Shown here in pieces: positions 685-35,325 of a stretch of 35,325 nt of DNA. A program made the position numbers and the translations under genes. Under the pieces are notes generated by a model, which was given only the letters and a program-made list of their open reading frames with translations, had not been told where the DNA came from and made no database searches. Origin of the DNA: Basidioascus undulatus (lineage: Eukaryota); assembly GCA_000826855.1 (NCBI GenBank), contig JTLS01000001.1:62001-97325 (forward strand). The letters are read 5' to 3'. How positions within the stretch are numbered: position 1 is the first letter of the stretch; every line of letters starts with the position of its first letter.

Positions 685-3600
685 TCATGCGAAACGAGCC
701 GAACGTCTTGCGAGAATGGAACCGGCGTCAGGGTTGGAGGAGGGAAACAGAGAAAGAGCAGAAGGGGGATAATTTGGTGTTCCAGGTATAGATGTGGACG
801 GGCTCGAGAGCGCCGAGTCGAGTTGGAAGCGGAAAGTGGAGGACGGGGACGGTGCGCGGGTCGACGACCGGCTGAGGTGGCCTGGAATACTGCTGCGAGT
901 GCCAAAGACATTGTGAAGGGGTAACGCTTCGCCCTAACCGTTTCCTCATCAGAACATGCGCTCGAGAAAAGGGAACCTAGAAGTAATAGTACCTGGCTAG
1001 CGATCAGCTGAGCGTGCTCGTTCTCGTCCACGTCCAAGATGCTCGCCTGGCCGAAGAGCAAGCGAGCAACCTCCAAGATGTTCTCGAGCGACGCGACCAT
1101 CTCCGTGAGGATCTCCGCCTCCGCGAGCGTGAATACGAGGCCGAAGTCGAGCCGCTGCGGCTGCGGCGGCGCGAGAACCTCGCGGACGTGCGCGTCGATC
1201 GCTTCGAGCAGGTCGTGAAGCGCGAGTTGCGGAGAGGGGAGGAACTGCGGCAGAGGAGAGTGCGAGCGGAAGGCTTGCGAGGCGGCGTAGAGGGAGAGGA
1301 GTGCAGCGTTCATCTGTCGCGCACGGAGAGCTCGGGTCAGGTCTGTCTGTGAAGGAGGGTGAACGCTGCATAGGACTTACCAGGTTCAAGCGGTACTCCA
1401 GCACGTCGAGGACCGTTTCTTTCCGCGGAACACGCTCGCGGACGTAGCGCAGCCCGATCATTAGGTCGAGCGTCCGCTGCAGCGAAGACACGGCCCGGCG
1501 GTAGAGGCGGACAGGCTTGGGGAGGATCGAGAGTTCAAGCCGGAGAGGTTCGAGGAGGCTGGATCCTTGAAGGACTGAGGTCTGAAGCAAGCTTGGCAAT
1601 TGAGTAAAGGAAAGCGTCCAGAGAGAAGAGGCAGGCAAGAAAAGGGAGGAAGGCGGACGGCAAGCGTACCTGGACCTTCTTTTCCAGCGCGTCCATCTGC
1701 CAGCGCGGGATGTCTTCGGCGCTGATGCTGCGCCGCGAGATGGCGAGGTAGAGCTTCGACATGTCTCCGAGGGACTTGGAGACTTGCGTGAGGAAGCGCT
1801 GCGAGAAGGTCTCCCATCAAACCGCGCTCAATGGTTCAGTGGCAGAGAGCGAAGATGACTGCGTACCTGCCGAGCATGAAAAGGAAAGAAAAGGAGGTTA
1901 ACGAGGATGGCGGCGATGATACTGCGTACGGAGAAAGACTGAGCGATGCTGCATTGATGAGAGGCGCAACACGATGGCGAACCCGAGCGAGATCATGTAT
2001 GCGCGAGTAAGCGCCGTCGCGATCGTCTTTGTTGTCGCAGTCCCGAGATACTAATACAAGAGCCCGACTCAGTAACTTTCCGGTGCACGCGAGCAAGGAT
2101 TAACCGTACCGGAGGGAAGATGATGGGAGGTATAGTGATCGAGCTGCGGTCGACGGCCGAGGTTAGATGGAGCGCTTCGCCAAGCGGGGTCTTGCCGAGG
2201 AGGCACTCACAAGACGACGCCAACGCCGGGGAAAGACGAGCGGCGGATGACCCAGGAGATGGGCGCTGCTGAGAAGGCCACGAGCGCCGCGATGCCGTAG
2301 GGGTTGTTCTGGGCGATGACAGCCGCCTGCGATTGTAGTGCACTCATCAATACATCGTCTTGCTTGCACCATCGTTGTGGAGGGGTGCAAGACTCACCAC
2401 ATACGCGTATATGGCGCCGAGGATCGTTCCGCCTATACGGCAGCGCGTCAGTTTGGTTTCGTGGTGATGCCGCTGACTGAGAAGACGACGCACAGATGCG
2501 TAACAACCCGACGCGGTACGTCGCCCCGGTGGACGTTTCCAACACGTAGAAGCTGCGAGGATTAAAATCAGTGTTGGACGGTGATCGACAGGGCGAGAAC
2601 GGAGCGCGCACTAGCTAATGACCATCCAGACGGCTCGCTGTTCGGTGTACCATTTCCTCCCCGCTGAGCCCGCCGGAAAGAACGCCGCCAGCGCGAGCAG
2701 CACGACTCCTGCCGCGTTCTGCCATCCCGTCGCACCATCACCATCACCGTCAACCGCCACCCATCCCACCTCCCTCGAGCACACGCGCACTCACCTTGAA
2801 TGCATACCGCACATGCCTTGACCGCCCAAAAGCGCGGTACGCGCGCGCGAGGAGGACGCGGGCCTTCATGATCCCAGGCGAGTCCCAGAGGACGAGGAGG
2901 CTCTCCGGCGAGAGGCTGCGCTTGGACGGGTCCCCGCGCGCGGAGCGCCGAATCGCGTACGACGCGTACGCTTCGAGCTGCAGCTCCTCTTCGACGTGCA
3001 GCAGGTGGTGGTCGCTGTCTGCTTGGTCTTCGGAGGGCTCGTCGTGCGCGTCGTCTGGTTGGAGAACGGGTATGAGTCAGTACGTTGAGGGAGGAGAGGC
3101 GAGGAGAGGAGAAAACACACGCTTAATCCCTGACTCGTTGCCTGCTACCGAAGTGGACGGTGGTGCGCCCAGCCAAGCGCGCGTGAGCGTCGGCCAGCGC
3201 ACCCTGCGCCTTCCCGTCCGGCGGCGCTCCAACACGTCCCCCGCGCTCTGCAGCGCGAGGGAGACGTCCTTCGAGATAGCCAAGAGTGTGATAGCGAAGT
3301 ACGAGAGTGCGCAGAGGCGCCTGCGAAAGAGGTGGTCCTGCTGCGCGGCCTTGCCCGCTAGGCCCTTGAGCAGCGTCGTCCGCAGGTCCTCGCGGCAGCG
3401 CTGCACGCCAGCCTGGAGGAGCTTCCCCTGCGCGACGAGCGCCTCCGCCGTGGACTCCGGGCCAGGCTTGTTCGGCGTCAGGGACGTCGCCAGCGCGTTC
3501 CGCACGAGCCCGAGCGAGGTGAGCACCACCTGGCACAGCAGCCGGATGGACGTCTCAAAGCTCTCGACCACCGCGTCGTCCTCCACGTCGGCCGTCGCGC

Positions 3601-17413: not shown

Positions 17414-17725
17414 CCCTACCTTATACCGCTTACCTCTGCCCCTTATTTCGTATGGCCTCATACGCATCGACCTCAATGAAATTTCTCTGTATCTTCTGTG
17501 GGAATGGCGTTTCCAAAATGCGCTGTGCCGTGTCTGCTAGCCGCACTGCACGCACAACCTCAACTAGGACATGCCGCACATCTTCCCGCGCACGAGAGTA
17601 ACGCGAGCGGGGACGCTCAGCTGCATGTTCGGGATGCCGTGTCCGCTAACAGACCACAAGCAGCAAGCAGGCCGCAGATGCAGAGCGGTGTTGCAAGTGC
17701 ATCAACATGATCCAATCCGCCCGTC

Positions 17726-18750
17726 CTATGCCCGCCTCGCTGCATCCGCCTTGCGGGCCGCCTCGCGCTCCCGCGTCGCGATAGTCCAGTCGTCCTCCCT
17801 GGGCTTCTTCTCCGCCTTTCCACCCTGCGGCACCTCTGCGGGCGCGTCCTCATCGTCGATCTCTGTTCGAGGGTTGAAGCTCGTGTCAGCTTTGAGGGAC
17901 AAAAATGGTTGAATGGACAATAACGAACCTTCGCCGTAGAACTGTTGAGTCGATGGAAGGTGTTGAGCTCTATGCGGAGATGCGTCGCTAAGAAGGGCAG
18001 ACGACCGACCTCAGGGTGGCGCCGGAAGCAGTCCTGCATCGCCTTGAACTTGTCTACGCAGTCGATGCCCTTCGGCTCCGCTTCAGAATAGACAAAGCAG
18101 GCTGTCGTTAAAGAGATGATGGGTCAGCACCATGCCCGACTGAAGGGAATCAGACACCGCGACGCACAGAACGCGGCCTTGAACTCCTCCCCACACGGCC
18201 CATGCGCCATCCCGCCAAGACACGGGCAATCCCTGCCATCCGTATCCAGCACAATCAGTTTCAACCCAGATTGTACTCTGACTCCACCCGGCCGATCCGA
18301 CTTCAGGACGTACCAGTTGATCTCCCCCGTGATCGGGTTCACCGCCCCCTGGCTAGCAGCGTCCTCATCATCGGCCAGTTCAGGCGCGTTCGCCGCAGAG
18401 GTGTAAGGCGAATCAGACGCAGAGGGCTGGGACTCGTCGGCAGCCTCCTGCGCCTTCTGCTCGATAGCGGAAGGCGCGGGCGAAGAGACAGGGTCGGTGA
18501 GCACTGCTGATGGAGGTCAGCGGGGGAACGCAGGGGCATGGCAACGGGAGATGAACGCACTGGGCCCATCCAGCTTCACATCATTCCAGCTGTTGCTTAG
18601 CGCCCATGCACCGAGAGCAGCCGCGGCTGCAGCGGACGCGAATGCCGCGCCGGACCTGCTCGGCGCGGCGGAGCTGGAGGCGCTCGAGAAGGAGCGCGCA
18701 GCTCGGGCAGAGCGCGCGAGGGAGGAACGCAGAAGAGTGCGAGCGAACAT
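17726..18750 (-). CDS. MIA40: Mitochondrial intermembrane-space import oxidoreductase Mia40, 6 exons
   Basis: Presequence plus hydrophobic anchor; [68 protein letters not shown] contains the CPC motif and twin CX9C. Confidence 0.95.
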
Positions 18751-22252: not shown

Positions 22253-23135
22253 AATGTCCCCTGGAAGAGAAAGCAAGGTTGCGGAAAATAAGCTTAGAGT
22301 GCGGAAAGAAGGGTAAAGAGCTCGAGTGCTCTGATCTCGCCTTGTTTTTCAAGAGCCACGCGGGCACCGACTGCGACCCGGGAGATGGGGACGACACTGC
22401 CGCTGACAAGTTCTGCGCAAGAGGCGACGAAGCGGAATGAGCGGAATGAGACGGGCAGCTTTGGGCCACTCGACCTCAGGTACTGTACTGTGAAGATGTA
22501 TAGGACGGGAGATCAAGCAGTTCAACGTCCACGCCGACGTTGCGCGGTCCGCAACGGGATTTTGAGGACTCACTCCACGGATTTAGCGTCAACAGTCATC
22601 TATCAGACAAAACCCTTGTCTTTATAACGCGTTGCCCAGACATTCTTATCAGATTGGACCAAGGATCAAGACGGTGAAGCCGTGTGTCCGCTGTGGAGTG
22701 TGACCGTGTAAACTCACGACTCGTTCGCTGCATAGAAACAACGCAGTCATGCCGACGACTGCGTACCATACCGACCTTGCCCCAATGATTGAGATCCGCG
22801 GCGGCTCCCCCGGCCGTCTCATGGTGTTGCGGTCTTCGGAGGATGCAGTGGCAGCACGCACGCTTGCGCACGTGACACTCGAGCGCAGTCAAGCGCGAGC
22901 CCTTGCCCCGTCACTGCTTGTCGCCAGGTTTTCGGTATTTGCATTTCGTTTCATGTGGATCCTTGCTGGCAGATACGACGGAAAGCGACCGCGGTTGACG
23001 GCAGCGTACGCTAGGCAGGGAGTTTCCTCGACCTTTCATCGTCTTGACCGAAGGCTCTCACTCATGCACGCCAAAGACTGAACAAGATAACCATGCATCG
23101 GCAGACCAACACAAAACGGAGGAAACACAGAATAC

Positions 23136-26100
23136 TCAATCCCGCTTGCTAAGCTCTTGCAGCGCGACCTGTCACAGGTCCGAAGCGTCAGTTCCACAAG
23201 CATCATGGCAATGAAGAAAAAGATAGGATCGCGACACACAAGCTCCGCATACTGCACAAACAAGGATATGAGTTGTCAGAACATTCCCTCAATGAAAAGT
23301 GCGAGAACGACGCACAAGTCCCGCCTTGTCCTGGAGCAGCTCGTTGTGAGTGCCTGCTTGGCTGACACGCCCGTCCTTGAACACGTAGATGATGTCGGCC
23401 TTCTGGCTGTAAAACTCAACAACCTGGTGAGCTGAGAAATCATTCCACGCATGGGCGCAACATCTTACATCGTGGACAGGCGATGCGCGATGGCGATGGT
23501 AGTGCGCCCCCTAGCGGCGTTGTCCAAGGCCTGCGTGAGAGCGATATTGTTTAGAGCTCGTTCCGGTTAAAGTTGCGGCAAAGACTCACAGCCTGCACGA
23601 CCTTCTCGCTCTCCGAGTCCAGCGCCGAGGTCGCCTCGTCGCTGCGTGTGTCCAAGAAGTTGTTCAGTACGAAGACTATCCCGAACGTGTACCGCTTCAG
23701 ACATACAGGAGGAGAATCTTCGGCTGGCGGATGAGGGCACGGGCGATTGCAATACGCTGACGATGACAGGATGTCAACGCTGCGAATCGTGGAGGTTAGG
23801 AGAGAGGATGATCACCTGTTTCTGCCCGCCGCTGAGTTGAGTGCTGCAGACATACATGCACATGTCAGTACTGCACTTGCCCAGTCACATTTATGGAACG
23901 CTCTCTTACCCTTTGCCTCCCACCTGAGTGTCGAATTTGTCGGGAAGCTGCTTAATGAAGTCGAGAATGTTCGCGTCACGGCAAGCCTAACACAAATTGT
24001 AAGCAAACGAGTCCTAAGCAACGACTAAGTCTTCTCGCACCTGCTCGAGCTCCTCCTGGGTCACTTCCTCTGCGGGCTTGACGGCGCCGAGCAGGATGTT
24101 GTACTTGATGGTGCCCTGATAGCTGTTAAGATACCTTGGTATCAGCCCTGTCCCTCGTGTGAGAAGCAATCAGGTAGCTTACAGCGTTGGCTCCTGAGAA
24201 ACGAGGGCGATATGCCGACGGAGATTGGCGACGTTGAGCGAGGTAAGCTCGTGACCGTCGAGCGTGATGCGGCCGACCTATGTCCGCCTTCCGCGTCAGC
24301 GGTGAAATAGATCCATCAGAAAAGAAGCAGGTATTCACAATGGCATCGTAATAACGTTCAATGAGCTGGATTGTCGTCGACTTGCCGCAGCCAGACGGGC
24401 CGACCAGCGCGACGTAGGTGCCCGGCTTGATCTCGAGGTTGAGCGAGCGAAGGACGCGGACGTCAGGACGAGTGGGGTAGCGGAAATGAACGTCCTCGAA
24501 GCTGTCCGAGTCATCAAAGTTCAGCAAATTAAGCACGAGACACTGTGAGATTGCCACACGCACCGGAGGTGACCCTCGACGTGGTCGAGCTTAAGGCCTT
24601 CCTCAGACTCGGAGTCGATCTCCGGTTCAGAGTCAAGCAGGGTCATCGTGCGGCTCGCCCCACCTTTGGCGGAAGAAATGTCGGGCACGAAGGAAAAGAC
24701 GTTGCGTGGAGGCGGAAGGAGATGTTAGACAAAGAAGGACCAGGAGCGAAGATCATGACTTATCAGCTTGGATTGAAGCCTGCAGAGTGCACGAGTTCAG
24801 TATTATGCACATTTGTTGCATTGGAGAGGGGTAGCAGACTCACGAAGACGACAGACATAAGGACTGAAGATGAAAATGATCAGCTTCAGTTCACCACAAG
24901 TTCCGGAACAGCGCGGCGTGAGGGAAGTCCACCTCGCTTTCCAACAATTACTTACCGATGAAGAACTTCTCGGGGTTGTACTCGCCGCTGATCAGGAGGC
25001 CCGCGCCGTACCAGAAGACTGTGCGTGAGGGGCAGAACATCCGTCAGAACGCCTTGCCGACAACAACAGACGCGAAAGACGAACTCAGGGCAATGACCCA
25101 GAAGGCGAGAGCCTGCGAGAGGGCGTAGATTGCGCTGCAAGCAGAAAGAAACCTCAGAATCAATTGAACGGAATCAGGTAATACTTTGAAATGAGCTTAC
25201 TTCGACGTCAGAGAAGTACGGTGCGACAGCCGAGCAGGCGCCTCGAGCGACTCGTGGTCTGCAATGTCCCATAGCCATTCAGCACTATATTGTGAGGTAT
25301 CGAGAAGAGTTTCTTACAGATGCGGGAGCAATCGTCCTCACGAGTAAGGGAAGCCACTGTGCGAATAGCACCGGCGGCCTCACAAGCGAGTTGCGCCGAC
25401 TCATCATGCGCCTTCTTATTCTTCTGGTCCTTGAGGACAACGACTTGAAGGCGAATGTAGCCGGCGCAGACGCTTCAAGGTAGAGCAAGAGTAAGCGTCA
25501 AAGCGAGCAGGGTCTCGGGCGGGGCAGGGCGTACGTGAGCGGGATGCACGCGGTGCCTACGAGCCCGAGTTTCCAACCGTTGCTGAAGTGCAGGTCAATA
25601 TAGCCAGCAAAAAAAAGAATCAGCACAGAAAGGGTGAAACGCACGCGACACCGATGATAATGCTGCCGCGCAGGACAATGCAGTCAGCAGCGAGGACAGA
25701 CACCAGAATGAAAGTCAGCGACGCACCCTCCAACAAGCGTCGCGATAGACTGGATGATTGTTCCGAGTGTGACCCCGCTAAAATTACACAAATATATCAC
25801 TTAAGAGTCAGATGTGGCATATGCAAAGTCTGGTATTGTGCCGACGCACGCGAGCCCCTGGACCTTCTGCGCGTTATCGGCGAGCTGCGAAGTGAGAGCG
25901 CCGGTCGAGTTGTCGGAGTTATCGAAGTACTGTGGTGAATAGAGTGAGAAAATATCCCAGTTTGCGTGAAGCCGGCAGGACCTACCTTGACGTCCTGGCG
26001 AAGGAGTGCCCGGAAAGACAGGGCTCGCAGCTTGAAGGTCAGAAGCTCCGATGTGCGGGTCATGCAGAAGGTTTGCACGAAGATGGCCTTTGCGTTAATC

Positions 26101-29100
26101 ACGACGTTAGCCGTTTGTCCCGATTGGCCTACAGGGCGACGCTTGAGAAACGTACAATGGTTGCGGCGATTGCGATGATGAAGAACCAGAGGCCATTGCG
26201 GTCACCCTCGTGACGAAGCTCGGAAGGGTTGTCACCAGAGTAGTCCGCAAAAGATCTGCGGAAAGTAGATCAGCGACTGCTCGCTTTCCTGTAATCAACT
26301 CGCAAGCTAGGGCGTACTGCAGAGTGCGACCGAAGACAATGCCCTAAAGTAACAACAGCCTGTTAGGACTCTTTTCCTCATACTGAAAAAATATGCTTAC
26401 GAAACAAGGGTAGACCAGTCCCGAGGCGATCTAGAGAGTGACGAAATATGTGAGATAAGAATGCTCGACCATTCGGAAAGGATAATACGTGCCGCTCCCA
26501 AGGTACCGAGCATGTAGAGATTCTTCGCATCCCAGTTGATCTGTGTGCGGAGAGGGATCGGTTAGCAATGAAAGGGGCGTAGCTGGTCTTGGGTAACGTA
26601 CCAACAGCATGCGCTTCAGAATCGCGAACATGGCTGTGGGTAGAGATACGGGTCAATCTGTGTTGTCGTGTCTCTGACTGGAGCGAGTGACCAACAATGC
26701 TTGTCCCTGTACGCCTGCTCTTCGTCCTCTTCCCTCTTGCGCTTTGCCAAGATCTCGGAGGCAATCGAATGCCCCGTGCCGACGCGCGCAAGCGGTTGCT
26801 CCTTCTGCGCAAGCTCCTCGGCTTCTTCGCGCGAGAGGGCAGCCGGACCGGCGCTGTTCTCTTCACCCTGCTTGGCAGCGGCGAGTTTTTGAGCGGCAAC
26901 GAGACGACTGGAGAAATGATGGTGAGTCAGACACACAGTCAAGCTAAACGACTCAGTGCAGCTCACGAGTAAGGGCTGTCGGGGTTGGTGAGCACTGGGT
27001 GGAGGCGACATCAGCCATGGTGTGTACATCGGCACCGGCGTCGAACTCACACTCTTCGTGAGTTCCGGTCTCCAGAAGCTCGCCGCCGCCCATGACGAGG
27101 ATCTGGTGAGCGTCGCGAACAGTGCTGAGACGGTGAGCCTAAGAAACGGTAAACCATGAGCAATTTTCGTCGTCGAAGAAGGGCGAATGAAACAGAGCGC
27201 ACAATGACGATGGTGGTGCGACCTTGGGAAGCCTTGTCGAGCGCGTCCTGGACGATTCCTTCGGACTGCGTGTCGAGCGCCGAGGTTGCTTCCTGCAAGG
27301 GCAGCGAGCAGATTATGAGTACCATTCCGAGCAGTATGCCGGAGTCTTCTCTCACATCGAGCAGGAGGATGAGCGGGTCCGAAACGATAGCACGGGCGAT
27401 GGCAATTCGCTGCTTCTGCCCTCCGCTGAGGAGCATGCCCCTATTTCACGCATTCGCGGATCAGCCAAGAGTACAGTGAAACAGCGGTCTTCTGAGACTC
27501 CTTGACAAACCTTTCACCGACGTTGTTGTCGTATCCGAGCGGGAGGTTGGAGATGAACCCATCCGCATTGGCTTTGACCGCAGCGGCCTTGACAAGCTTC
27601 AACTTCTCGTCTGCGCTCAGCTGCTCCAGCGGCGTGCCGATCAGACCGTGCTAAGTCGACGCGTGTCTTAGTCCTCCTGCGTAAGAGCTTCATGAAGCCT
27701 CTAACGAAGCATGTACCTCGATATTCTCCCTCACGGTCGCGTTGAAGAGCACCGGTTCTTGCCCGACGAGGCCGATCTTCCCGCGAAGGAACTTCAAGCA
27801 GAAGCAGACAAGTCAGCGGCACGTTCTGACACACCAGCATGGCAGAGAGATTTGTTCACCTTGATGTTCAGGGACTTGAGCTCGTGGCCGTCGAGACGGA
27901 TGACTCCAGACTCCGGATCATAAAAGCGCCTGGCAATGATACTTTCAGCACCGCACTGTCAGAGAGTATTGAACACGACGCAACTTACTCAATGAGGGAG
28001 ACGATGGTGCTCTTCCCAGAGCCGGATGCGCCGACGAGCGCCGACTGATGGGAGGCTGATCAGCTCGAGTATGCAGAACGATCGTACTTGGAATCCTTAC
28101 CACCTTGCCCTTCGGGAAGGTGGCCGAGAAAGACTTCAGAATAGGCACATTCGGGCGAGCCGGGTACCGGAAGTTGACGTTCTGCCGGACATGTGAATGC
28201 GTTAGCGATAGCTGGCAGTTGCGTTCTGATCTGAGAATCAGCTCACCTCGAAGGTGATGTGCCCCTCGACATTCTCCGGCTTCTCACCCAGCGGGCTGGC
28301 GGAGTCGATGGGGGGGATGCGGTCAATCGTGTCGTAGATCTTAGCAGCAGCGCCGCGCGCCTTCGCAATGGCTTGACTGGAAATGCAGAAGCTCCGCGTT
28401 AGAAGCTGTTACGGGAAGGTATGATCAAGACATCGGTCTCGCACAGTTCAGGGGCAATCATGGCGAGCGAGAATGCGCCGATCAGGATGGCCCTTAATGC
28501 GCTGCAAAGTCAGCAGCCAGTCTCCGAAGGGGCAGACAGGATTCCACGTACAGGAACACGTTGACGACAACACCGACGTCAGTCTCGTTACGAAGAACGA
28601 GCGTAGTCCCGTAGACGAAAGCGAGGGCGTAAGACTGTTTGGGAACGCAGTGCAAACAGCTTAGGCAACTGTCCATTGTACCGAGGTGTACTGAAAGCTT
28701 ACGCTGTAGATGATGAAGAAGAAGGTCTGAAGCAAGTGATGCAAAGCTCAGCAGATGGACCTGGCTGAAAATTAGCAAGTGGGTGACACACCCCCAGACC
28801 GCAACCCATCTGCGCCACCGCAGGTCAGCACTGTGTCTCGCAAGGCGGTTCGGAAAGAGACTTACAACAACAGCGCCTTTCAGGCCGACAGTGCGCGCTT
28901 TCACAAGGTGGGTATCGTAGAGCGACGCCAGCTAGAAAGTACCGGCGTAGGGACTGTCAGGGAATGGGAAATACCGCAAGAGGCGAGCACCAACGCACAA
29001 TCTTTTGGGTGCCGAAAGCTTTCGCTGTGCGGACAGTCGAGATGACCTCCTCCGCAAGCGAACCCGATTCGGCAACCGCCTCGAGCGCCAGTTGTTGATC

Positions 29101-30528
29101 TGTGTGCTAATCGCCGTCTATCAGCCTATGTAAGGGCACCTAAGTATCGGTACTGACACTTTGTCATCAGAGTCGTCATGGTTCCACCCGCGACCTGCAT
29201 GGTCGGGCCATCAGCAACGCGCAGGAGGGCTTGAAGCGTTATCTGGGGCTTACCGCGATACACGGCATGATGACGAACAGAACACCAGCGAGCTTCGGTT
29301 GGCGGATGAAAGCGATGATAAATCCCGCAACGAAAGCCGCCAAGAACTGGACCGCAAGGGCGACCTTCTCCGAAATGCCCTGCTGGATGAGATGCGTGTC
29401 CGTCTCGATGCGTGTCGCGACCTCGCCCGCGCCGAGCTTGTCGAAGTATGCAATGTCCTTCGGCACAGACACGCAGAGTATGTCAATATGATTATCATCG
29501 CAATGTGGCAGCCAATGCGTGGGTGAAGTGCGCTTACCTGGCGAAGGACAGCACCAAGATACCGCTCACGTATGCGGCGCGAAATGGTCTCGGCCGTGTA
29601 GACCCAAGCAGCCATGTACATGTATGTGCCGACGAACATAGCGATACCGATGCTGGAAACGGGGAGAATTGGCATCAGGCTGGGGTTGGCCCAGTGATTA
29701 GCACGGGCTGAAAACGCACATGGTGAGGTAGAGCGCATTCATGTTGCCTATGATAGCATCAATGTGACGCTCAGTATTCCGGGGAGCTAGACCGTGGAAT
29801 ATTTATGAGTATCACATACAGTCGTCCCGAAGCGAGCGCCGGGCATTAATCAGATCAGCGAGGAAGCCAGCGTCGCCAGGATTGTCCATCGCATTCTTGG
29901 CGGCGTGCCCGAAATCCACGAAGGATCTGGTATGCGAGCGGTAATATATGAGTAATTAGGACTTTTGCCTTGGAACAAGCCAGAACAAGAGAGGCTCACG
30001 TCGTGAGGCGGCCGAAGATGAGTGTCATCAAGGCTGCGAAGGCAAGATGCCACTCAGCTAGGTTCGGGTTTTCACATGAGAACAAAGGGACTGACGCTGC
30101 ATTGCGCCAGCTTTGATACAGCAGGACGTGTTAAAAGTTTCGTCTGGGTAGCTCATGGGAAACGGGGCGCGTACCTCCGGCCGAGCACAAGAGTCCAACG
30201 AAGTTGATGAACTGTTCAGTCCGCGAAGTCTTCAGGATCTCTGGCAAACACATGCTCGCCGACCTCCCAACCCATCCGCCATCTCCGCGTGTAATTAGAA
30301 ATGCGGACGTACGAGCTCGAACTTGGTCGCGTACCGCCACAAGCTCAGCAGCGGGACGGACGGAGGCGCCGCCGGCTTAGCCGTGTCGGCGACGGCGACC
30401 TCAGTCGTCTGGTGCGCGTCGCTCGAGGTGGTCGAGGAGCGAAGCTCTTGCTTCTCGCTCAGAGAAGGAGGCTTCTCCGCCGCGAGGATGGCGCCCTGTT
30501 GGGCGGAAGAGTCGGGGATCTTGGACAT
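23136..30528 (-). CDS. Full-length ABCB (MDR/P-glycoprotein, Pmd1/Mdr1-like) transporter, TMD-NBD-TMD-NBD, about 54 exons
   Basis: Traced by hand from MSKIPDSS to [13 protein letters not shown]1: [44 protein letters not shown]2: [41 protein letters not shown]. The frame is continuous if one GC-AG and one AT-AC intron are accepted. Confidence 0.95.
24706..24763 (-). other. AT-AC intron (58 nt) in the ABCB gene
   Basis: Minus strand: ...CAA GCT G|ATAAGTCATG...GTCTAACATCTCCTTCCGCCTCCAC|GC AAC GTC TTT. Removing it restores [20 protein letters not shown]; retaining it gives TGA four codons after GCT. Confidence 0.85.
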
Positions 30529-31059
30529 GCTGGTCCCGATTCGAACGAAGGTTGGAATAGAGCCGGATCGGGGCGGCCAGCAGACGCCGGGAAGGTCAGG
30601 AAGCGCGAGAGTCGGAGGACGATATTGAAGAATTAGTGTGTAAATCAAGAATGCGAAGCCGAGATGATAATGAGGGAGTGGAGTGCAAGAACAAAAAAAA
30701 AGAAGCAGAGAAGGAGGTGTGAAAGCGACCAATCGAGGCCGGATGGATCGGATCGTTGGAACGCGTGTACAGCTTGCCGCTCACCAGCGGCTTCCAAGGG
30801 CACGCGCGGGCGGACGGCACGGCGCCCGCGATGGGGACACGGGGATCTTAATATTGTGCCCGAAGCTCACGGCGGCCGTTCTGCATAAGTATCGCCGAGC
30901 TCAACCTGGAAGGCCAATAGAAACGTTCTACACGCAGCTTATGTTGTGCTAGTGCTGCACTCTTACAGTCCCTCTATGCAAGCAATTGATTGTAACTCAG
31001 TTTAATGCTCAAGTACCTTCAGCTTGGTTGCTAGCTTGCTACCGCCAAGTCACTGGCAG

Positions 31060-31424: not shown

Positions 31425-32015
31425 CAGATGCGGGCGCTCATCTTTGTCGTTCACCAGTTTGTAGAACGCGGCACTGCCGGGATGCACCGGCGGCTTCGCA
31501 TGCGAGCTGTGCAAAGTCGTTATGGGCCTTCTTGTTCTTTTGGAAGACCACCTCAAAAGCATTTTTTAACCCCCCATACCCTTCAGATATATGCACCAGC
31601 CAGCGTTGGAGCGGGCATAGTCCTGGATCGGAGATCGGACAGGGGGTTCATGAGCGGGACGCATGCGGTGCCCACGGGGCCGGGGTTTCAACTATTGCTG
31701 AACAGGAAGACAGTGCGGTTAGCAACCTGAAACCGAGACAAAGTGGGCAGTAACCCGAGACCGATGGTAATGCTGCAGTGCAGGACAATGCAGTCAACGA
31801 GGATACCAGAAAGAAAACTCGGCGACACACTCCCCAATGAGCGTCGCGACGGACCGAGAGTTATGCTACTCAGGGTACTCAAAGACATGGTGAATTGTCA
31901 TGTATGGAATATACAAGTCTGATGTGGTACCGACACACGCGAGCCCTTTACCTTCTACGTATTCTCACTTCTGAGCAAGCTACGAAGTGGGAGGCGCAAG
32001 TCCGAAGTGTCGGAC
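31425..32015 (-). pseudogene. Decayed partial paralogue of the adjacent ABCB gene (TMD2 region, exons plus introns)
   Basis: Collinear with about 25320-25918. [23 protein letters not shown] matches [25 protein letters not shown], and VGTACVPL matches VGTACIPL. Carries TGG>TGA at 31690-31688, a GT>GA donor and indels. Confidence 0.85.
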
Positions 32016-32541: not shown

Positions 32542-32615
32542 TCTTCGGTGGCGCAATTGGTTAGCGCGTCCGACTGTTAATCGGGAGGTTGTGAGTTCAA
32601 GTCTCACCTGAAGAG
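32542..32615 (+). tRNA. tRNA-Asn (anticodon GTT), intronless
   Basis: Acceptor stem TCTTCGG/CTGAAGA plus discriminator G; D arm GCGC-AATTGGTTA-GCGC; anticodon arm TCCGA-CTGTTAA-TCGGG; T arm GTGAG-TTCAAGT-CTCAC. Confidence 0.95.
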
Positions 32616-32625
32616 GACACAAACC

Positions 32626-32630
32626 TTTTT
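32626..32630 (+). terminator. RNA polymerase III T5 terminator of the tRNA gene
   Basis: TTTTT starting 11 nt after the discriminator base. Confidence 0.75.
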
Positions 32631-33568
32631 GGCCTGTGTGGGGTTGGGAGGCAGTGGTGAGGAATCAGTGCGGGGCGGGGTGGTGAACGTTGTTGCGGAG
32701 GAGCAGCAGCGTCGGTGTGTCGACCAACTGTCGAGTTCCATCCAGCCTAGAATTTTTGGTAGACCTGCTAAGTGGTCGTTGCATACAACAGAAGGGTCCT
32801 GAACCCTCACGAAGTCCTCAGGACAACACCCAGAAAAGCGCAACTGGCACCCATTGGTGGCACTGAACCGTCCTGAGTGGGTCTCTGAAGCCTGAGCCAC
32901 TGTAGACAGTTGAACGTGCCCTTTCATAGTATAGCGTTGTGCATGCCTATGAGGATTCTGGGTATTTTTTAGCGGCAAGGAGGGTACAAGACTGTACAAA
33001 CTGGGGCGGTGTCTGTCTGTGCTATCCGTCAGCGCATGGACTACCCAACTGCCGCGGCTCCCTATAAACTGCACTCAGGTATCTATACACCCACTTCGAC
33101 AGACATTTCTCGTCACTCCCTCCGTTGCTACCTTTTGTAGCAGGACAGTCCCACGAGCACTTCCAATAGTGTGCTTCAGAGCAGCCAACGCGCTTCCACT
33201 CTTTACCAGTGTCACGGGTCTGGCAGTGGAGTACGGTGCAGCCGACGTTGATGTATTCCAACTGTCTACGCAAGTCGCGGTGCTGCCTACACATCCGGCA
33301 CGGAAACGAGAACACATACAGATCTGCGGATTAAAAAGATACATCTCAACATGAACTTGCAAGTGAAAGGCTGAGTTCGGTGCTAAGGACGACTCAGCAG
33401 CTCGACGCGAGACGCCTCCACAGACGCGTCGCACGTGCAGTAGAATCCACTCAACACGCCTACCTGCCCTCCTTGCGCACCTCCTTGCAGCTCCCCAGCA
33501 TCCCACGCTCTCCATTCTTCCTCCCGGTCCTCCGATCTTCCCTCTCTCATAACACTTACTCACCCATC

Positions 33569-34246
33569 ATGTCCGACACCGCCTCCCCCGCGCCCGAGCA
33601 AGTCGAGGAGGTCGACCCGGCGGTCGCTCCCGCGCTCGAGGAGGAGGACGACGGAGAGGAGGGGACGTATGTGGATGATGATGATGAGGGTGCGGGTGAG
33701 GACGAGGAGGAAGATGATGAGGATGAGGTGCATCTTCCGATTCGCGGCCCGCGAGGCAGGCGAGTTGCAAGCTGATGAGAAGCGGTGGGTGCGGGACAGG
33801 GTCCCGGACTGGCCTACCTCGTCGAAGGGGACGTGGCGTCTGAGGATGATGACGAGGAGTATGAGTACGGTGGTGCGGCGGGAGAGTAGGTCTTCTCTTT
33901 CCCCTCCTCTCTCCCCTTTCCCTAATCCTTCCCTCTGTTCGCCTTTCCCTCCTTTACCGGCCCCGACCCCAAGCAACCTTTTCCGAACGCGCGGCTGACT
34001 GTGGTGCTGTGGGTGCTGGCGCAGGGAGGACGATACGGATGAGGAGCCCGAGTCGGATGCGGAGGGGGAGGAGGAAGAGGAGGAGCCGAGGGTGGGGGAG
34101 AAACGCGGGTGCGTCTTCCCACTCGCCTTGCCTTCCCGCGCGTCTTCCCGGAGTGGACGCTCATTTTGTTCCCGTGCATACACAGGCGCGCAGCCGCTGC
34201 GGAGGAGGAGGGGGATGCGCCGGAGGAGAAGAAGGCGAAGGCGTGA
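33569..34246 (+). CDS. 122-aa highly acidic protein with an ANP32E-ZID-like motif and C-terminal NLS; putative histone chaperone
   Basis: Exons 33569-33727, 33800-33864, 34025-34108 and 34186-34246 (all GT-AG, 369 nt) give MSDTASPAPEQVEE...DDEDE|GPGLAYLVEGDVASEDDDEEYE|EDDTDEEPESDAEGEEEEEEPRVGEKRG|RAAAAEEEGDAPEEKKAKA*. The gene model is well supported; the function is inferred. Confidence 0.8.
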
Positions 34247-34556
34247 GGACCGACAGCTGCGCGGGATGGGCGGACGGACGGACGGAGATGGAAAGGAAAG
34301 GAGGAGGGGCATATGTATGCTGCTTGTTGTTGTTGTTTGGCTGTTTTTGGAGTATACTATACTTGCTTGCATACTTGCTTGCGCGGAAAGCATGGTGGCT
34401 GAAAAGGCTTGCGCCCTGGACCACCTCCGCCATCGAATATGCCTGACCACCAGTACTGCTCTTCCGTTCCCCAAACCGCATTCAACATTCACGTAGCGCA
34501 GTCCTCAGTGGTACCAAGCCCCGCCGCCCTCGAAATAGTCGCTCAACGACCTCATT

Positions 34557-35325
34557 TCATCGCATCCCCGCCCCGCCCACCGCCTCCCACGCCCCGACAC
34601 ACATCGCGTCCCACCCCGCATCCTCCTCCACCTCCTTCCCTCCCTCCGCGCGGACGGTCGCCCGCCACACGCGCACGACGGGCGGGATGTGTCGCTCGAT
34701 CATCCGCCCCGTGAGGGCGCAGGGCTGGTTGTAGAGGGTTGTGAGGGAGGCGAGTAGGGACTGCGCAGGGGGAGAAGGGGGGGCAGTTGGGTGAGGGAGA
34801 GAAGAAAGAAGGGTTCAAGGGAGGAGTGGACGCACAAGCACGAAGGGCACGTTGGACTGCGGGTTGCTGGGGCGCGGGGCGAAGGGCGAGGTGGAGGGCG
34901 AGAGGGCGGAGGTGCAGTGCTGGGTGAGCGCTTGGAACACGGCGTGGTCCGAGATGTGGTAGGGCTTCTTGTTCTGCGGGCAAAGCACCACCATGTCAGT
35001 CATCCTGGACGGCTCAAGAAGGGGAAAGACAAGAACAGGAAGGGGAAACAGAGAAAGAGGAAGCGCAGGACGAACCGTCTCCAACGGCCCAAAGAACACG
35101 ATCCTCCTCACAACTGCGCCCTCCTCCCCCGTCCACTCCACATAAAGCACCGCCCTCCAGCTCCCCTCGCACAGCGCGTCCACCAGGTCCTCCCGCTCCT
35201 CCGGGAGCGCGTACTTGACGCCCCTGCCGCTCTCGCTCTCGGCCGCGAGGTGCCCACGCAGGGCGGCGGGGGTGTAGAGGTCGGGCGGCGGGGAGGAGAG
35301 CGGGAAGGGGCGCGGGAGGCGCTGT
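34557..35325 (-). CDS. 3' part of a probable Mediator subunit Med27-like gene, entering from the window end
   Basis: Spliced ...VRRIVFFGPLET|NKKPYHISDHAVFQALTQH...VPFVL|SLLASLTTLYNQPCALTGRMIERHIPPVVRVWR...WDAMCVGAWEAVGGAGMR*. Resembles the recalled Med27 C-terminal pattern SxxxVFQxLT...LFxxPCxxCG...PPxxR. Confidence 0.55.

Follow-up and report, generated by a model that had tools for sequence, protein, structure and literature searches.

A probable U2-type AT-AC intron in an intron-dense ABCB transporter gene of a basidiomycete

Our results indicate that the interval 24763..24706, on the minus strand of the window (the whole stretch of DNA analysed here, 35,325 nt in length), is, with a probability of about 0.8, a genuine U2-dependent AT-AC (type II) intron, which the major spliceosome would remove from the pre-mRNA of an ABCB transporter in a poorly sampled basidiomycete lineage. 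A first-pass annotation of the same DNA had proposed a U2-type AT-AC intron needed for the transporter, and the junction test, the spliced alignments, the intact gene, the splice signals and the phylogenetic placement agree in pointing to such an intron. The coordinates given there and the description of the sequence were found to be correct throughout when the interval was inspected.

The host gene and the exon junction

The gene was modelled with a protein-to-DNA spliced aligner, in which the ABCB protein of Wolfiporia (P0006) was aligned against 30600..23100 and AT-AC introns were charged a penalty of 20. The resulting model (Table 1) has its ATG at 30528 and a stop codon that ends at 23136, with a CDS of 3.97 kb, and is free of frameshifts and internal stops. 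Walker A, Walker B and LSGGQ motifs are present in both NBDs. The 45 best-scoring homologues listed are annotated Agaricomycetes ABCB proteins, to which the model is 58-62.6% identical nearly end to end; the near end-to-end alignment to annotated fungal ABCB proteins shows a TMD-NBD-TMD-NBD architecture. Pfam searches on single exons returned ABC_membrane (E 3e-15) and ABC_tran (E 8e-9). By homology the gene is thus an ABCB transporter of the MDR/P-glycoprotein type, and drug pump is a name taken from homology only.

The introns of the gene measure 54-101 nt, with a median of 63 nt, and their ends are GT-AG in 51 cases, GC-AG in one and AT-AC in one. When other proteins served as guides, P0040 recovered 51 of the 53 introns, the AT-AC one included, and P0048, from Wallemia, recovered 48 of 53. 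Micro-exons are numerous in the gene model, and the residues that flank the sole GC-AG intron match the homologues without gaps.

Table 1. Positions of the host gene, of the AT-AC interval with its signals, and of other features in the window
Feature	Position	Strand	Basis
ABCB full-transporter gene, 54 exons, 53 introns, 1323 codons	23136..30528	-	spliced alignment
Putative AT-AC intron, 58 nt, phase 1, splits Gly codon of QAG/N	24706..24763	-	junction test, spliced alignment
5' splice site ATAAGT; exon base G at 24764 is position -1	24758..24763	-	sequence
Branch-site motif CTAAC, putative branch A at 24725	24724..24728	-	sequence
Pyrimidine-rich tract, 15/18 bases, ends in 3' splice site CAC	24706..24723	-	sequence
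In-frame TGA met on retention of the AT-AC interval	24753..24755	-	read-through translation
Micro-exon, 16 nt, A-S-I-Q-A-G (first base)	24764..24779	-	gene model, junction test
Canonical GT-AG intron, 64 nt, GTGAGT..CAG, upstream of the 16-nt micro-exon	24780..24843	-	gene model
Micro-exon, 20 nt, V-L-M-S-V-V-F	24844..24863	-	gene model
Exon, 142 nt, from GC AAC GTC; NVFSFVPD..., end of TM12 and linker to NBD2	24564..24705	-	gene model
Sole GC-AG intron of the gene, GCACGT..TAG, in the stretch before TMD2	26431..26492	-	gene model
Micro-exon, 12 nt	23240-23251	-	gene model
Micro-exon, 15 nt	30096-30110	-	gene model
Micro-exon, 18 nt	28792-28809	-	gene model
Micro-exon, 18 nt	25645-25662	-	gene model
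tRNA gene	32542-32615	+	Rfam, 66 bits, sole Rfam match in window

The integrity of the model bears on the reading in which this copy is not productively expressed, either as a very recent pseudogene or dead allele that has lost both terminal G's of the intron, or as the result of two assembly errors. The locus has undergone duplication and decay, as shown by a diverged copy of part of this gene 1 kb upstream, at 31484..32014, and this history favours a non-expressed copy. However, the other 52 introns have all kept GT-AG or GC-AG ends, and the 54 exons (54/54) are in frame, with every catalytic motif present. By our own arithmetic, two random substitutions would fall on the first and the last base of the same intron with a probability of about 1e-6 in a gene of 7.4 kb, a figure that is smaller still if the changes must be to A and C, and this A/C pair is exactly the one that has been reported by Gould et al. 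(2016) to splice. We regard a non-expressed copy as decidedly unlikely.

The preferred reading, a spliced AT-AC intron, depends on where the exons join. Upstream, the exon ends ...ATC CAA GCT G, with its last base at 24764, and downstream the first base is 24705, in GC AAC GTC TTT. The segment encoded across this junction had been described in the first-pass annotation as conserved among basidiomycete ABCB proteins, and the homologues bear this out. In 15 of 15 homologous proteins [IV]QAG is directly joined to NVFSFVPD. Eighty metagenome loci were examined, four of which (L019, L055, L065 and L069) fell outside the motif patterns, and in all 76 readable loci QAG and NVFSFVPD are contiguous. 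Among the 89 homologous proteins that cover the motif region, QAG is found in 83 and the Gly in 87.

An exhaustive junction test, in which 1574 donor/acceptor pairs were tried and any dinucleotide was allowed, gave 24763/24706 as the unique top junction, with a score of 88 against 81 for the next best; the runner-up junctions scoring 81 replace the conserved Gly. Spliced alignment leads to the same place. Once AT-AC ends were permitted, the score rose from 3238 to 3315 with P0006 and from 3274 to 3351 with P0040, a gain of 77 in each case with the penalty already deducted, and both of these guides, two of the three used, put the intron at 24763..24706. The third, P0048 from Wallemia, kept the AC acceptor and used an AT donor at 24821, so that the upstream intron and the AT-AC intron were merged into a single AT-AC interval, 24821..24706. 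This protein reads LAS where the great majority of homologues read QAG, and its placement was given little weight because it is aberrant at the motif itself.

When only GT-AG and GC-AG introns were allowed, the aligner read through the upstream intron and used a weak GC-AG pair, 24779..24664, which removes a conserved segment of 13 residues at the motif. Neither spliced alignment nor inspection of the signals yielded a GT-AG or GC-AG solution that retains both the frame and the motif. Within 24763..24706 there is a single AG, at 24760, inside ATAAGT itself, and, as had been noted in the first-pass annotation, none lies between the branch site and the exon; past the interval, the minus strand offers no further AG until 24665, which lies 41 nt inside the next exon.

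A different non-canonical junction could in principle be used, namely GT-AA at 24759/24702, CT-AC at 24766/24706, or the AT donor at 24821 with the acceptor at 24706. Such alternatives rank next in frame among the 1574 pairs, with scores of 81 and 73, the donor at 24821 is the one favoured by P0048, and GT-AA introns outnumber AT-AC introns (22 versus 13) in the annotation paper of Ganoderma lingzhi. Every one of them, however, disrupts the conserved QAG: the GT-AA junction would put Asp in place of the Gly, and the CT-AC junction would drop the Ala. The alternative 5' sites GTCATG and ATGCAA lack the G at +5 that is present in 49 of the 53 introns of the gene, and the option at 24821 would require an intron of 116 nt, which exceeds all others in the gene, and would add unrelated residues. 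The use of another junction is, on this evidence, very improbable.

The splice-like signals were also considered on their own. A scan of the window for AT[AG]AGT...CT[AG]A[CT]...YAC found five distinct donors, compared with 1.9 +/- 1.4 in 100 Markov simulations, which was rated as chance level. Splice-like signals alone do not exceed chance, and it is the reading frame and the homology that carry the case for an AT-AC intron at 24763..24706. A nested or twin intron was rejected by eye, as there is no AG after position 5 and no GT/AG arrangement that would yield canonical ends after an internal excision.

The type of spliceosome

At the best-scoring exon junctions the interval begins with AT and finishes with AC. 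Its 5' site, ATAAGT, fits the U2-type consensus at every position except +1, and the branch site and the pyrimidine tract stand at the usual distance. Its length is inside the range of the gene. The branch motif, by the count of the script, sits 20 nt before the 3' end, against a median of 21 in the gene, and the branch A itself is 19 nt ahead of the last intron base. At the 3' end, CAC takes the place of CAG, which is the commonest ending in the gene (36 of 53 introns). AAGT at +3..+6 is shared with only 3 of the other 52 introns, and CTAAC, placed 12-35 nt before the 3' end, with 5 of 52; the two together occur in none of the other 52. The strong 5' site and branch site of the AT-AC intron are consistent with compensation for weak bases at its ends.

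In U12-type introns the branch site follows a TCCTTAAC-like consensus close to the 3' end and is not accompanied by a pyrimidine tract. Here the branch region, TGTCTAAC, agrees with that consensus in 5 of 8 positions, and the 18 bases after it include 15 pyrimidines. An Rfam search for structured RNAs in the window returned only a tRNA, and no minor snRNA was seen within the window.

Identity of the ABCB protein to basidiomycete homologues is 56-63%, compared with 48-51% to a glomeromycete and to Basidiobolus. In a FastTree phylogeny of 37 proteins, built on this one gene, the protein falls inside Basidiomycota, beside Wallemia and outside Agaricomycetes. Larue and Roy (2023) reported that neither Ascomycota nor Basidiomycota had yielded convincing minor introns and described such introns as absent from Dikarya, and Gould et al. 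(2016) gave ATAAGT as the very strong consensus for the U2-type AT-AC introns known so far, with ATATCCTT as its U12-type counterpart. The U2-type reading of the interval is favoured because its signals are U2-like, the gene is placed among basidiomycetes and Dikarya have been reported to be without minor introns. A U12-type intron, for which the lineage would have had to keep a minor spliceosome, would fit the AT-AC ends and could be imagined in an unsampled, deep-branching basidiomycete, but it is exceedingly improbable in view of a 5' site, ATAAGTCA, that agrees with ATATCCTT at only 3 of 8 positions, a CTAAC and pyrimidine tract that resemble those of the neighbouring U2-type introns, and the report on Dikarya just cited. 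What the first-pass annotation had stated about the U12 consensus, Dikarya and the pairing of a first-position A with a terminal C is in line with Larue and Roy (2023) and Gould et al. (2016).

From the observed features of the interval, the uniqueness of its junction and the intactness of the remaining gene, we infer both the splicing itself and the type of spliceosome. With a U2-type intron, U1 and U6 would recognise the 5' site G/AUAAGU, which is otherwise optimal, and the CUAAC branch site would pair with U2. The usual G-G non-Watson-Crick contact, which exon ligation requires, would then be replaced by one between the first base of the intron, A, and its last base, C. Through this proposed contact, the exon ending at 24764 would be joined to 24705, forming the Gly codon of QAG/N. 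If the intron were retained, translation would halt four codons into it, at the TGA that the first-pass annotation had predicted and that read-through translation of the sequence does reach, and NBD2 would be lost.

Published AT-AC introns

AT-AC introns of this class have been published before, also from Dikarya, and the present intron would add one case. Sheth et al. (2006) counted 24 U2-type AT-AC introns among 610,067 introns of five model genomes; they cited SCN4A and SCN5A as examples backed by experiment, and also mentioned hypothesised examples in xylanase genes from filamentous fungi. As reported for the human genes, SCN4A and SCN5A introns have the same AT and AC ends and the same ATAAGT consensus as the present intron. 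The two differ in that dependence on U2-type snRNAs has been shown by experiment for the SCN4A/SCN5A type, whereas splicing of the present intron is deduced from sequence, and in that the former are described as conserved from human to puffer fish, whereas the position of the latter is specific to its lineage.

Among fungi, the annotation paper of Ganoderma lingzhi lists 13 AT-AC introns (0.014%), 49 GT-AC and 21 AT-AG introns. One of the AT-AC introns, in chr6g0094801, was confirmed there by RT-PCR and Sanger sequencing, and its omission broke the gene model. Like the present intron, this one occurs naturally in a fungal group without minor introns; unlike the present intron, it has been confirmed on RNA. 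The likeness noted here concerns the terminal dinucleotides, the host group and the effect on the gene model. The first-pass annotation had presented a natural AT-AC intron in this group as more of a novelty than it is, given that such introns, one of them confirmed in this way, were already described in Dikarya. Papers on Fusarium graminearum and Coprinopsis cinerea also include AT-AC among the splice types observed, and Frey and Pucker (2020) found AT-AC to be less frequent in fungi than in either animals or plants.

Two cases come from yeast. Gould et al. (2016) cite Parker and Siliciano (1993) for an engineered yeast intron with A first and C last, in which the same pair of ends was tolerated by the major spliceosome of a fungus that has no minor one; that intron is artificial, unlike the present one. 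Gould et al. (2016) themselves described an endogenous AT-AC isoform of RPL30 in S. cerevisiae, confirmed by RT-PCR and amounting to ~1-2% of mRNAs. This nested AT-AC is, like ours, an endogenous fungal AT-AC junction, but it is a minor isoform with a 5' site unlike ATAAGT, whereas the present intron is obligatory for the frame and matches ATAAGT. U12-type AT-AC introns have the terminal dinucleotides in common with it, but their ATATCCTT 5' site is absent here and minor snRNAs are needed for their removal.

Because both the class and its occurrence in Dikarya have been published, the intron opens no new question. It would provide a clean, obligatory example of A first and C last, with otherwise optimal 5' and branch sites, in a basidiomycete. 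It also has a practical implication for annotation. Gene prediction that admits only GT-AG and GC-AG introns would disrupt this transporter of 54 exons or splice it wrongly. The canonical-only alignment loses the conserved segment here, and the same kind of failure has been described for Ganoderma lingzhi.

Intron turnover in the host gene and the rest of the window

The first-pass annotation had further suggested that the intron may be rate-limiting for the drug pump, and that it descends from one with GTAAGT...CAG ends, both of which would have changed. The comparison of homologues gave no footing for the latter proposal: an intron at the AT-AC site was found in 0 of the 76 readable metagenome loci. 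Two protein searches returned no match above 78% local identity, and no close relative or transcript-derived protein of the same species was found among the results.

With 53 introns in 3.97 kb of CDS, the gene carries 13 introns per kb of coding sequence. Intron positions were compared over residues 601-1335 of P0006 in 56 metagenome homologue loci, which together have 578 introns at 60 distinct positions, 15 of these positions being common to at least 21 loci each. In this C-terminal span the present gene has 32 introns, compared with 0-27 (mostly 5-14) in the 56 loci. The 15 common positions are all unoccupied in this gene, and only two of its 32 introns coincide with a position in any homologue, both of them with the intron-rich locus L041 only. 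Such a density, together with a nearly complete turnover of positions, is unusual for a fungal gene. Similarity among the introns themselves, as expected of introners, was looked for by all-against-all blastn of the 53 introns, which gave only matches of 9-10 nt and no mutual similarity. Four homologous loci (L003, L018, L044 and L048) align without introns over 300-735 residues, and may be transcript-derived contigs or intronless copies.

Researchers of intron gain may find the turnover of introns in the host gene more interesting than the AT-AC intron itself. It could be imagined that the latter is one of some 50 lineage-specific introns that replaced the entire ancestral set. If an exceptional rate of gain were combined with a permissive major spliceosome, the genome could hold far more U2-type AT-AC or other non-canonical introns than the 0.003-0.014% seen elsewhere, and the intron at 24763..24706 might have been gained recently, or might act through slow splicing as a gate on the expression of the pump. 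We consider this scenario, which is built on the comparison of intron positions, unlikely.

Outside the ABCB gene, Pfam searches on 23 large ORFs of the window gave no match above threshold; matches below threshold were CHCH at 17617-18123 and SR-25 at 33560-34504, both on the minus strand. The GC content is 50-65% across positions 1-23000 and 32600-35325 of the window. The segment at 31484-32014 is a diverged duplicate of 25368-25917, with 65% identity over 568 nt, and tblastn identified it as a degraded piece of TMD2; situated about 1 kb upstream of where the ABCB gene starts, it is probably a pseudogene fragment.
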